From: a virus
Taxonomy: Duplodnaviria > Heunggongvirae > Uroviricota > Caudoviricetes
Reading direction: 5' to 3' (one strand)
DNA length: 64,000 bases
Virus record (IMG/VR): IMGVR_UViG_3300039159_000198
Below, one piece after another: positions 14,708-56,397 of this stretch; position 1 is the stretch's first letter, and each line of letters begins with the position of its first letter. A program made the translations under genes and the position numbers. The notes beneath the pieces were generated by a model. That model worked only from the letters and a program-made list of their open reading frames with translations. It was not told the origin of the DNA and did not search any database.

Positions 14708-15733
14708 ATGGAAAGAAAGTTAGCCAGTATTAGAAGAATTAGTGATATTCAAAGTATTCCCGATGCGGATATGATTGAACTATCTATTGTGGATGGTTGG
14801 AAAGTTGTTATAGCAAAAAATGTTGGTCATAAAATTGGAGATTTGGTAGTGTATTGTGAGGTTGACTCATTCTTACCAATTCGTGATGAGTTTGAATTCT
14901 TACGTAAATCATCTTATAAGAAAATGGGTGACCAAGAAGGTTTTAGATTGAGGACCTCAAAACTAAGGGGGCAAATTTCTCAAGGACTTATCCTCCCAAT
15001 CAATGTGGTTCCAATTACACAGTTTGCGACTGCTCATGATTTACCTGAAGGTATGGACGTAACCGATATGTTGGATATAGTAAAATACGAACAACCAATT
15101 CCCGCAGAACTCGCTGGTAAAGTGAAAGGGATTTTCCCAAGTTTTATGCGTAAAACTGATGAGGAAAGAGTTCAAAATTTATCAGATGAATATGTGGAAA
15201 TGAAAAATCATACATATTATATAACCGAAAAGTTGGATGGTTCATCTGCGACATTCTACTACAATGATGGTATATTTGGTGTTTGTTCTCGTAATTTAGA
15301 ATTATTAGAAACGGAAGGAAATACTTTTTGGGAAGTTGCTCGTGAATTAGATTTGGAAAACAAATTGAGAAATTATGGAGTTAATTTATCGATTCAGGGG
15401 GAACTTATCGGAGAATCGGTGCAAGGAAACCCATATAAACTCAAAGGTCAAACAGTAAGATTTTTCAATATTTTTGATATTGATACTCAGGAATACTACG
15501 GATTATCTAATTTTCTAAGATTATTAGATGTGTTAGAGTTAAATTCTGTTCCAGTCCTTAGTAGGGATTTCAAATTACCGGAAACCATTGATGAATTATT
15601 AACTTATGCCGACAAGAAGTCAGAGTTAAACCCTAACTTTGATAGAGAGGGATTAGTGATTAGAAGTTTGGATAGAAAAATCTCATTCAAAGTGATATCA
15701 AATAAATTTTTACTTAAAAATGACAAAAATTGA
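14708..15733 (+). CDS. ATP-dependent RNA (polynucleotide) ligase, nucleotidyltransferase motif I KLDGS
   Basis: ITEKLDGSSATFYY (KxDG lysine-adenylylation motif) with downstream EGLVIR and GELIGES motifs typical of Rnl-type ligases. Confidence 0.6.
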   Translation: MERKLASIRRISDIQSIPDADMIELSIVDGWKVVIAKNVGHKIGDLVVYCEVDSFLPIRDEFEFLRKSSYKKMGDQEGFRLRTSKLRGQISQGLILPINVVPITQFATAHDLPEGMDVTDMLDIVKYEQPIPAELAGKVKGIFPSFMRKTDEERVQNLSDEYVEMKNHTYYITEKLDGSSATFYYNDGIFGVCSRNLELLETEGNTFWEVARELDLENKLRNYGVNLSIQGELIGESVQGNPYKLKGQTVRFFNIFDIDTQEYYGLSNFLRLLDVLELNSVPVLSRDFKLPETIDELLTYADKKSELNPNFDREGLVIRSLDRKISFKVISNKFLLKNDKN

Positions 15734-18279: not shown

Positions 18280-18716
18280 ATAAAAAAAAATAAAAAAAAT
18301 GGAAACTGACAATTTGGATGAATTAACCACACGATATAATAGTATTTATAGTCAATTATGGAGTGATAGATTACTGAGAGTGTTAATGTCATTTGAAGGA
18401 AATGGTAATCTTTGTAGTGAAATAGAATTACCCAAGAAAAAAAAATCAGAAAAACCAAAATTTAATCAAACAAAAAAATAACCCTTTAATTAAGGGTTTT
18501 TTTAATTATACCTCTATTTATAAATATGGAATACACTATTGATAACGAATCCAAGACACTAACAGTTTTAAGTAATGGTGGTGGTATTGGAGAAATAAAA
18601 ACATTAATGGAAACATTTAAGGGGTATACTCTCTTAACTGGACCTCAAAAAGAAAAAAAAGAATGTGTTTGTAACCCTAAAAAGGGTGGAGACGGCATTT
18701 GTAAATGCGATTAACA

Positions 18717-18761
18717 TGAAATACATTATAACAGAAACACAATATAATAATCTTATTTGAG
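18717..18761 (+). pseudogene. truncated ITE-leader gene remnant (MKYIITETQYNNLI-stop)
   Basis: ATGAAATACATTATAACAGAAACACAATATAATAATCTTATTTGA. Confidence 0.45.
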
Positions 18762-18990
18762 AAAATAAAAATGAGAATGACGTTTTAGATTACTTAATGG
18801 AATTATATCCTGAAATAAATAATTTAGATGTTAAATACTATAACGGAACCAAAGGGTTTGGTAAAACATTCTCAAACCCAAAAACTAAAGAAGTTCTTTT
18901 TAGAACGGTAAAACCCCACTCCAATGATTGGACATCAGGAGAAGGGTTAACTTCAAAATCAGTTATAAAACTTTTAGTACAACCTTTATT

Positions 18991-19431
18991 TTAAATTTTT
19001 ATTTCAAAACGATTTCTCATAACCTCAAGTTTATCTTCCGGAACTCCATGCTCATTAACTCCTCCGTGTCTGTTTTCAACAATTAATGAATAAACTTTAT
19101 ATCCGTGTTTTTCCGCCAAGTCAAAATAAGGTTTCATCTCCCATTCTTGTGTGAATGTGTTTGATACAACAATTCTTTTAGTTTGGATATCAGGGTTATC
19201 AAGAGCAACCATACTTTCTTCCACACCTTCTTGACACCAAGCGTGAGCATATTTTAATTGTGATGGGTCAAATTCATATTCCCCATTAATAGTTATAAAA
19301 TACATATCAGCTTCGATATGGATACCACCAATTGATTCTGCCAATGTTGATTTACCACATCCTGGTTACGGAACCCCCCTTAAAAGGAATAATTCCTTCA
19401 GGGGGGTTATATTTTTTGTTAATTTATTCAT
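18991..19431 (-). pseudogene. T4 Pnk-like polynucleotide 5'-kinase domain interrupted by an in-frame TAA inside the Walker A motif
   Basis: minus-strand translation reads MNKLTKNITPLKELFLLRGVP-stop-PGCGKSTLAESIGG...IVVSNTFTQEWEMKPYFDLAEKHGYKV. Removing 6 nt (TAACCA) would restore GVPGCGKST. Downstream motifs resemble the T4 Pnk kinase domain (IISDTN, ETFAKEYGWKV). Confidence 0.55.
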
Positions 19432-19986: not shown

Positions 19987-20421
19987 ATGACAAAAGTAAA
20001 AATTTCAACAGACAAAGGTGATATGATTGCCGAATTATACGACAATGAAACTCCAATTGCCGTAAACAACTTTAAAGATTTAATTGGAAAAAAATTCTAT
20101 GATGGATTAAATTTCCATAGAGTAATTCCTAATTTTGTAATTCAAGGTGGATGTCCAAATGGTACTGGTAGTGGTGGACCAGGTTATAACATACCTTGTG
20201 AAGTTACCGCACCTAAACAATTTCATGATAAGGGAGTTTTATCAATGGCTCATGCTGGTCGTAATACAGGTGGTTCTCAATTCTTTATTTGTCATAACAG
20301 ACAAGGAACCCAACACTTAGATGGGAATCATACTTGTTTTGGTAAAGTAAATGAAGGTTTAGATGTAATTGACTCCATCAGAGGAGGAGATAAAATCAAC
20401 TCAATTACTGTGATTGACTAA
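19987..20421 (+). CDS. cyclophilin-type peptidyl-prolyl cis-trans isomerase
   Basis: FHRVIPNFVIQGG, GTGSGGPGY and SMAHAGRNTGGSQFFI are cyclophilin signature blocks. Confidence 0.9.
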   Translation: MTKVKISTDKGDMIAELYDNETPIAVNNFKDLIGKKFYDGLNFHRVIPNFVIQGGCPNGTGSGGPGYNIPCEVTAPKQFHDKGVLSMAHAGRNTGGSQFFICHNRQGTQHLDGNHTCFGKVNEGLDVIDSIRGGDKINSITVID

Positions 20422-49398: not shown

Positions 49399-49470
49399 CG
49401 GGGTGTATTCTCGGAGTGAGAAGCCTGCCTTGGACGCAGGAAGCGGGAAGTGCAACTCTTCTCACCCCGA
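49399..49470 (+). tRNA. tRNA-Pro (anticodon TGG)
   Basis: C1-G72 acceptor CGGGGTG/CACCCCG, D-stem TTCT/AGAA, anticodon stem CCTGC/GCAGG with loop CTTGGAC, T-loop TGCAACT. Confidence 0.6.
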
Positions 49471-55854: not shown

Positions 55855-55937
55855 AGTCAGGTGGCGGAATTGGTATATGCATAACTATAAGGTTGAAAGC
55901 GATTGTTATTTTACAGGTTCGAATCCTGTCCTGACTA
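55855..55937 (+). tRNA. tRNA-like gene X1 (Leu/Tyr-type D-arm GGCGGAATTGGTA, canonical T-arm ACAGG-TTCGAAT-CCTGT) with non-canonical anticodon region
   Basis: acceptor AGTCAGG/CCTGACT. The only 5-bp stem in the middle (ATAAC/GTTAT) encloses a 19-nt loop. It is a paralog of X2 and X3. Confidence 0.4.
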
Positions 55938-56307: not shown

Positions 56308-56397
56308 GGTCAGGTAGTTTAATGGTAGAACAGCTAGATGACTCAGATACTGATTCTGATAATATTGCTTATACAGGTTCGAATCCTGTTCTGACTA
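56308..56397 (+). tRNA. tRNA-like gene X2 (class-II length, same T-arm as X1 and X3), anticodon unresolved
   Basis: acceptor GGTCAGG/TCTGACT (two G-U pairs), D-arm GTT-taatggtaga-AAC, candidate anticodon stem TCAGA/TCTGA with loop TACTGAT (no U33). Confidence 0.4.

Follow-up and report, generated by a model that had tools for sequence, protein, structure and literature searches.

How can a gene whose nucleotide-binding motif is split by a stop codon still yield its protein? The question is raised by a minus-strand gene for a predicted Pnk-like P-loop kinase in a 64,000-nucleotide (nt) stretch of phage DNA (IMG/VR virus record IMGVR_UViG_3300039159_000198; Caudoviricetes), referred to below as the window. 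A TAA codon and the codon that follows it are inserted into the Walker A motif, or P-loop, of this gene. The analysis described here indicates that the gene is probably intact and that its translation depends on a programmed +6 bypass, or "stop hop", performed by peptidyl-tRNA-Pro. A six-base insert of the same design recurs in other phage P-loop genes, and the insert with its flanking elements is called the cassette.

The interrupted gene and the proposed hop

On the minus strand the junction reads GGG GTT CCG TAA CCA GGA TGT GGT AAA TCA ACA. Two surplus codons split a GxPGxGKST Walker A motif between its Pro and its Gly, where close intact homologs have KELFLLRGLPGSGKST, and the window gene contains GVPGCGKST only once TAA and CCA are skipped. 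The first-pass annotation had described a 6-bp insert whose removal restores this motif, and both the sequence and the intact homologs confirm it. The interruption divides the gene into two open reading frames (ORFs), whose coordinates are collected in Table 1 with those of the other features. ORF2 is an uninterrupted run of 123 codons in a genome of 31% GC; it is closed by TAA (18993-18991) and aligns end to end with intact homologs, so that skipping the stop and the next codon gives a predicted product of 144 amino acids (aa). The protein database entry for the gene is a 117-aa fragment of the downstream ORF, deposited from several sources. A frameshift reading was ruled out by inspection, as neither of the other two frames encodes a P-loop. 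Within the window, this is the only site where a CCN-stop-YYD junction (Y, C or T; D, A, G or T) joins two real ORFs.

Table 1. Coordinates of the interrupted gene, of its parts and of other genes discussed in the text
Feature	Positions	Strand	Basis or description
Recoded gene, stand-alone Pnk-like P-loop kinase (predicted)	18991..19431	minus	translation and homology
ORF1, ATG (19431-19429) plus 20 codons, the last being the take-off codon	19369..19431	minus	sequence
RNA hairpin, outer stem AACCCCCCU (19408-19400) with AGGGGGGUU (19380-19372)	19372..19408	minus	RNAfold
Take-off codon CCG (Pro)	19369..19371	minus	sequence
In-frame stop TAA	19366..19368	minus	sequence
Proposed landing codon CCA	19363..19365	minus	sequence; YYD rule among relatives
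ORF2, GGA (19362-19360) to the last sense codon, GCGKST...	18994..19362	minus	sequence
Convergent neighbouring gene	18716..18994	plus
RNA ligase gene	14708..15733	plus	PF09414 and PHA02142 OB domain
Cyclophilin-type peptidyl-prolyl isomerase gene	19987..20421	plus
tRNA-Pro(UGG) gene	49399..49470	plus	42.6 bits against the Rfam tRNA model
tRNA gene, 19-nt anticodon-arm insertion	55855..55937	plus	not assigned by ARAGORN
tRNA gene, 32-nt anticodon-arm insertion	56308..56397	plus	Gln(CTG) by ARAGORN

In the proposed scheme, a ribosome would translate the 21 codons of ORF1 and halt once TAA enters the A site, its P site being occupied by peptidyl-tRNA-Pro on CCG. The 9-11 bases directly 5' of the P site would be the 3' arm of a GC-rich hairpin, the 5' arm of which would by then lie outside the ribosome, and the re-zipping of this hairpin as its 3' arm exits would pull the mRNA forward. 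The tRNA-Pro (anticodon UGG) would release CCG and re-pair six bases further on at CCA or, in relatives, at any YYD codon by means of G.U pairs. Decoding would then resume at GGA (GGN in relatives) and restore the P-loop, giving the junction peptide ELFLLRGVPGCGK and a product with GVPGCGKST, a Pnk-type 5' kinase that would probably serve RNA repair.

A sequencing or assembly error, left as an option by the first-pass annotation, is excluded, because the same TAA occurs in the window and in three other assemblies: ENA ERZ27316810 (locus L081, 99.9% identical to the window), Logan SRR17686853 (L082, ~98% identical) and ENA ERZ23499428 (L083, ~98% identical, with CTA and not CCA as the landing codon). 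The only point in favour of such an error is the general prior that in-frame stops are often mistakes, whereas four independent assemblies, made by different pipelines and carrying single-nucleotide polymorphisms elsewhere, agree on the junction, and about 120 further contigs have the same design. A megablast search of the region against cultured phages gave no match.

A recurrent insert in phage P-loop genes

The 80 best viral loci for relatives include one (L075, ~61% identical) that has GLP-TAG-CTA-GAGKST, that is, an insert at the same junction. Viral contigs were scanned with patterns that all demanded GxPGxGK[ST]T. The pattern CCN-TAR-CYA-GGN..GGNAARWSNAC, with its landing codon fixed, gave 49 matches, 48 of them genuine P-loop genes; when the landing codon was left free and GGNNNN was added 5', there were 78 matches (~76 genuine), and when TGA replaced TAR there were 47 (~43 genuine). 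Controls matched to the cassette pattern in information content returned only noise, with seven matches for a stop codon alone and four for an insert placed after the next Gly codon, none of them genuine. Thus, the insert takes only the 6-nt form in viral contigs. It is found at the identical junction in about 120 phage contigs as genuine P-loop genes, 88 of them distinct after the removal of duplicates, and with 88 distinct copies against four to seven noise matches for the controls the interruption is far beyond chance.

The carriers belong to more than one protein family. Many are small AAA_33 kinases, the family of the window gene, and Pfam also identifies a fusion of the kinase with a HAD_PNKP phosphatase (L156), a 736-aa fusion of kinase, Metallophos and T4-type RNA ligase domains (L094), and UvrD-like helicases. 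Other kinase carriers have C-terminal parts that may be 2H or HD domains; Pfam gave AAA_33 only in the one tested. In two of the helicases (L161 and L173), the cassette is accompanied by a long internal intein-like insert, which has HNC or HNS at its end, where the helicase sequence resumes; if this is an intein, two kinds of selfish element reside within one gene.

The cassette is phage-specific, since a scan of 596 Gbp of cellular genomes with the TAR pattern gave 94 matches of which only three were genuine. These three are helicase genes on contigs of metagenome-assembled genomes (MAGs) of Bryobacteraceae, Elusimicrobia and Gemmataceae (L217, L281 and L294, respectively). They belong to the same helicase family, read RIFGPP-TAG-CCR-GTGKTT and have the hairpin, and their presence in the MAGs is probably due to the binning of phage or prophage DNA. 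A search for hop sites beyond P-loops in 1.2 Mb of fetched loci, performed with no homology check, gave no convincing case, and no report of the cassette itself was found in the searchable literature.

Nucleotide rules at the junction

Codon counts over the 88 distinct cassettes reveal strict preferences. The take-off Pro codon is CCG in 46, CCT in 33 and CCA in nine, and CCC is absent, while the stop is TAA in 42, TGA in 27 and TAG in 19. The landing codon conforms to YYD in 87 of 88 (CTA, CCA, CCG, CTG, CTT, CCT or TCA; ACA occurs once), and its third base is A in 53, G in 25 and T in 10, but never C. These landing codons encode Leu, Pro or Ser, and the constraint is therefore on the nucleotides and not on the amino acid. 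The codon CCC is used elsewhere, 18 times as the Pro codon before the take-off codon in the helicases and at the matching Pro codon in five of 40 intact genes. Given G.U pairs, every YYD codon can pair with the anticodon 3'-GGU-5', and we infer that the codon rules are those that re-pairing of tRNA-Pro(UGG) would predict. A dependence on the specificity of release factor RF1 or RF2 was ruled out, as TGA is as common at the site as TAG.

One alternative is that the stop is read through by a near-cognate or suppressor tRNA, and the P-loop would then carry two additional residues. Nearly all copies have C as the base after the stop, and C in this position makes for weak termination in E. coli; in addition, the tRNA genes of the phage are numerous and include unusual ones. 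This explanation is nevertheless improbable. None of the tRNA genes of the window has a stop anticodon (UUA, CUA or UCA), TAA is the main stop of the genome (among the 136 ORFs with 80 aa or more, it closes 98), and all three stops occur at the site. Moreover, the codon that follows is constrained as YYD nucleotides, a stop-only insert, which would be milder for the P-loop than two codons, is never found, the stimulator lies 5' and not 3' of the site, and the readthrough product would have Pro in place of the first Gly of GxxxxGK. Genome-wide recoding was also rejected, as reading any single stop as sense leaves the gene set unrepaired and TAA is the dominant stop.

As for the tRNA genes themselves, the anticodon loop of the phage tRNA-Pro(UGG) is CUUGGAC, hence it has A37, and its T loop (GUGCAACUC) is atypical. 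Bacterial tRNA-Pro species are known to carry G37, which is modified to m1G37. The phage tRNA might be unusually prone to slip, but that the A37 and the odd T loop make it a dedicated slippery "hopper" is doubtful. Two other tRNA genes have anticodon-arm insertions that are possibly introns (Table 1), and neither has a stop anticodon.

A hairpin that abuts the take-off codon

Besides its outer stem (Table 1), the window hairpin has an inner 7-bp stem and a 3-nt loop (19392-19390), with 16 bp in total, and its 3' arm ends at the base preceding the take-off codon. RNAfold gave -22.9 kcal/mol for the 69 nt ending at the take-off codon, and a separate 75-nt fold gave -24 kcal/mol with z = -2.93, one of 200 shuffles being as stable. 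Of the interrupted small kinases, 39 distinct ones had upstream sequence long enough to be folded, and in every one of them the 3' arm abuts the take-off codon, with energies from -13.6 to -30.8 kcal/mol. When all families were considered, the mean minimum free energy of the 66 nt upstream was -22.7 kcal/mol for 92 interrupted genes versus -4.6 kcal/mol for 39 intact ones, and the last nine bases lay within a 3' arm in 91% of the former versus 21% of the latter.

The pairing is maintained while the sequence changes. Each of 39 distinct 3' arms has a 5' arm that matches it; AAGCCCUCU with AGAGGGCUU and GCACUCCCC with GGGGAGUGC are examples, and GGGCCGAAGA with UCUUCGGCCC is a pair from the helicases. 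In the kinase alignment, with the structure for the counts named by hand, 83.5% of the cells pair, 47 cells are double changes and the covariation score is 0.357, values that were reached by none of 500 shuffles and by none of the slid controls, all of which were lower. RNAalifold run on the ungapped alignment recovers only five core pairs, because the register of the stem shifts by one base among the sequences.

The 5' arm is encoded by an extension, made of the first 10 codons of ORF1, which most intact homologs lack. A Met codon stands exactly 20 codons before the Pro codon in 31 of 40 distinct interrupted small kinases and at 12 codons or fewer in none of them, whereas in intact kinases the start lies 8-12 codons ahead of the Pro codon in 53 of 61. 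The conserved residues of the extension are explained by the base pairing with the 3' arm, and a nascent-peptide motif as the purpose of the leader was set aside in favour of this pairing, although the peptide might also have a role. A Shine-Dalgarno-like run as the general stimulator was ruled out, because the helicase cassettes have none. At the start codon of many interrupted kinase loci (L128, L203 and L170 among them), AAATATATG recurs with no Shine-Dalgarno-like motif before it, perhaps because the hosts manage without Shine-Dalgarno pairing.

The hairpin could also guide an RNA enzyme, and it has to be asked whether the six bases might be removed or bypassed in another manner, for instance by excision and religation of the RNA through the RNA-repair enzymes of the phage itself, or by termination and reinitiation to give a split enzyme. 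Carriers are often RNA-repair genes with RNA ligase genes nearby, which would suit excision. However, helicase genes share the cassette, no start codon occurs at or past the landing codon, and neither the YYD rule nor the absence of CCC plays a role in either scheme. Furthermore, a P-loop fold would hardly function without its first strand. Both schemes are thus regarded as highly improbable.

Homing endonuclease genes beside the cassette

Of 61 interrupted kinase loci, 32 have an endonuclease gene upstream, as against none of 66 intact ones; for interrupted helicase loci, the figure is 19 of 39. At the kinase loci, the gene encodes about 290 aa, in which three NUMOD3 motifs (3e-21) are combined with a TnsA-like nuclease domain (1e-8), and it is located 50-155 nt upstream from where take-off occurs. 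The helicase loci have instead an HNH_3 gene (1.7e-14) that ends 35-93 nt upstream. These free-standing homing endonucleases probably target the P-loop-coding DNA at the point where the six bases lie. The insert would shield the genome that carries it from cleavage, while the hop would leave the protein unaltered.

Selection on interrupted genes and their history

All 58 interrupted small-kinase loci, which are 38-100% identical to the window, are full length. The median ratio of nonsynonymous to synonymous substitution rates (dN/dS) over 472 interrupted pairs is 0.26, with a value of 0.044 for the pair L205/L191. As a class, the interrupted genes are therefore under purifying selection with the stop in place.

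A neighbour-joining tree of the 140-aa proteins, which is poorly resolved, has interrupted and intact genes interleaved together with deep clades made only of interrupted genes; the interleaving speaks against a single origin, with the reserve that the resolution of this tree imposes. The 63-nt leader of the window gene is 98% identical to that of locus L129, compared with 73-77% in the rest of the gene, and the 5' module therefore moves by recombination. Two intact genes, P0064 (L318 2501-2932) and P0002 (L320 1120-1551), have kept the 20-codon leader and the 5' arm AACCCCCCT with no insert, and their hairpins are weakened (-13.5 and -8.1 kcal/mol, respectively). Both look like former carriers of the cassette, in a "hit and run" pattern.

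A different explanation of this distribution is that the insert is a selfish scar, an allele that is spread by the endonuclease and kills the gene, so that no carrier makes a functional protein. The tight linkage to endonuclease genes, the patchy and polyphyletic distribution on the tree and the recombinational transfer of the leader all agree with such an origin. However, the 88 distinct ORFs are full length with no second lesion, the median dN/dS just given holds in clades made only of interrupted genes, and a dead gene would keep neither the compensatory changes in the hairpin nor the strict rules for the take-off and landing codons. A gene-killing scar is for these reasons very unlikely.

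Besides an assembly error, the first-pass annotation had offered a fresh pseudogene, stop-codon suppression linked to nearby tRNA genes, and ribosomal bypass. For the class, the pseudogene is contradicted by the 88 full-length copies, the low dN/dS and the covariation of the hairpin; the link to a suppressor tRNA fails on the anticodons, on TAA being the main stop and on the interchangeable use of TAA, TAG and TGA by relatives; and bypass is the option that the evidence favours. Its anatomy of the site stands, while the hairpin, the 5' extension, the spread among gene families and the link to endonucleases had escaped it.

Points against the stop hop and the state of the window copy

Several points weigh against the stop hop and the role assigned to the cassette, or against their extension to the window. 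The hop and its efficiency are read from sequence alone, and the immunity role of the insert is proposed by analogy only. The restriction to P-loops is partly a matter of design, because the scan patterns demanded that motif. No cultured phage with the cassette was found by tblastn with endonuclease, full-length helicase and short stop-spanning queries, and the three cultured-phage records that were inspected have intact genes. Landing on CUN would demand a G.U pair at the middle position.

Other points concern the window copy. No endonuclease gene occurs within 2.2 kb upstream of it, and the 64-kb window has no homologs of the endonucleases of the kinase or helicase loci. For lack of such a gene beside it, the copy looks like an orphan cassette. 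The divergence within its lineage is too low for selection to be measured (dN 0.003, dS 0.023), and L082 and L083 carry Asn for Asp in an otherwise invariant EAD motif. In addition, the convergent neighbouring gene is freshly broken. It has an in-frame TGA (18758-18760) where L082 and L083 have TTA (Leu), and about 100 nt of its 3' end are gone relative to these two loci, so that in the window strain it resembles a recently formed pseudogene; in L081 this TGA was read through by the ENA gene caller.

Could the class then be functional while the window copy is a decaying orphan, which has lost its endonuclease, serves a phage that can do without the kinase and has a stop that now ends translation after 21 codons? 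The missing endonuclease gene, the change of Asp to Asn in L082 and L083, and the new TGA and deletion in the neighbour would all fit with decay. On the other hand, the window keeps the hairpin, the 20-codon leader and CCG-TAA-CCA-GGA, its 123-codon ORF2 is unbroken despite the low GC content, and the Asp is retained. The sole change of the landing codon among its close relatives, from CCA to CTA, still conforms to YYD. Decay is considered unlikely and, because it keeps every element of the cassette, the window copy is treated as a working orphan that would express its kinase by the stop hop.

Predicted product and gene context

With the insert removed, the product matches Pfam AAA_33 (4e-10), phrog_2071 "ATPase" (4e-40) and the PHROG Pnk family (6e-6), and it has about 8000 homologs. 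Sequence searches of PDB and NCBIfam gave generic P-loop matches only. In an AlphaFold model of the intact homolog P0002 (80% identical; predicted local distance difference test score 78), the kinases of T4 Pnk and C. thermocellum Pnkp are the top Foldseek matches in PDB, with E = 5e-5 and a query-normalised template-modelling score of about 0.62 (0.62-0.64 for 2ia5 and 1ltq). The likeness to T4 Pnk noted at first pass is thus borne out by this model, and a Pnk-like assignment holds at the level of the predicted fold of the homolog. Like T4 Pnk, the best structural match of the family, the protein has a GxPGxGKST P-loop followed by an Asp-containing motif. In contrast to it, AAA_33 is the sole domain, the phosphatase domain is absent and the sequence identity is about 20%. 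The Asp of the EAD motif, encoded by GAT at 19308-19306, is invariant across 46 homologs, and it may be the equivalent of T4 Pnk Asp35.

In cultured phages, intact homologs adjoin RNA ligase and phosphoesterase genes. In the window, the RNA ligase gene lies about 3.3 kb from the kinase gene, and the isomerase gene about 0.6 kb upstream of the kinase gene. In this gene context, a role of the window product as a 5' kinase in RNA repair is plausible.

Significance

Taken as a whole, the evidence inclines us to regard the cassette as a portable module, composed of a 5' hairpin, CCN, a stop and YYD, which would leave the protein unchanged in phage kinases and helicases. With a similar lean, and no stronger, it would represent the first natural family of in-frame stop hops, allowing at least two unrelated endonuclease families to place a cleavage-blocking insert in P-loop genes. 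Programmed bypassing has so far about one bacterial or phage example, gene 60 of phage T4. The cassette, if it acts as proposed, would be a second, independent and much simpler class of bypass with 88 natural variants, and it would seem to need no more than a tRNA-Pro that slips, a stop, a landing codon that tolerates wobble and a 5' hairpin that refolds. The pairing of an endonuclease with a recoding element would likewise become a recurrent strategy instead of a one-off. In practical terms, gene callers now split or truncate such genes, and an element of only 45 nt could be of use for engineered translational control.

Comparison with known systems

In prfB, which undergoes a +1 shift, a Shine-Dalgarno run lies 3 nt before the shift codon, and the window has AGGGGGG at the same distance. 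In 70S systems, forward shifts are favoured when a hairpin refolds upstream of, and next to, the site of the shift (PMC6321510). As in prfB and in those systems, the cassette would place a duplex at the mRNA exit, next to the P-site codon, with a stop in the A site. The differences are that the shift here would be +6 and in frame, that the duplex is intramolecular, and that the helicase cassettes lack a Shine-Dalgarno-like run.

Synthetic stop hops are known, whereas no natural in-frame stop hop was known to Atkins et al. 2016 (PMC5009743). As far as they are described where they are cited (PMC5009743; bioRxiv 10.1101/2022.08.31.505936), the synthetic E. coli examples (Weiss et al. 1987; O'Connor et al. 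1989) have the same geometry: +6 over a stop, nine nt that yield one amino acid, and a peptidyl-tRNA that re-pairs on a synonymous or near-cognate codon. Those accounts present them as unprogrammed, low-level and artificial, whereas the cassette occurs in natural genes with a conserved hairpin and under selection.

The 2022 preprint still calls the bypass of T4 gene 60 "unique" (bioRxiv 10.1101/2022.08.31.505936). Among the features by which that type is recognised, the cassette has take-off and landing codons that can pair with the same tRNA, a slow-to-decode codon, usually a stop, 3' of the take-off codon and a conserved mRNA structure. In both cases the stop comes immediately after the take-off codon, an N-terminal extension has been added to the gene, and mRNA pairing lies 5' of the site, which in gene 60 is the proposed driver of forward movement. 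The gap is 6 nt here and 50 nt there, the tRNA would be tRNA-Pro here and is tRNA-Gly there, and the cassette has no take-off stem-loop 3' of the take-off codon. The 5' hairpin is conserved and covarying in the cassette, while the 5' stem-loop of gene 60 is poorly conserved according to the same preprint (bioRxiv 10.1101/2022.08.31.505936).

The likeness to gene 60 extends to its endonuclease. The gene 60 insert blocks nicking by MobA and persists after the loss of MobA (bioRxiv 10.1101/2022.08.31.505936). Like it, the cassette adjoins genes for free-standing homing endonucleases, occurs as orphans after the endonuclease has been lost, and has a patchy distribution shaped by recombination. The two systems share no sequence homology; gene 60 encodes a topoisomerase and the cassette is carried by P-loop kinases and helicases, in which at least two unrelated endonuclease families are associated with a bypass that would be built on the same plan.

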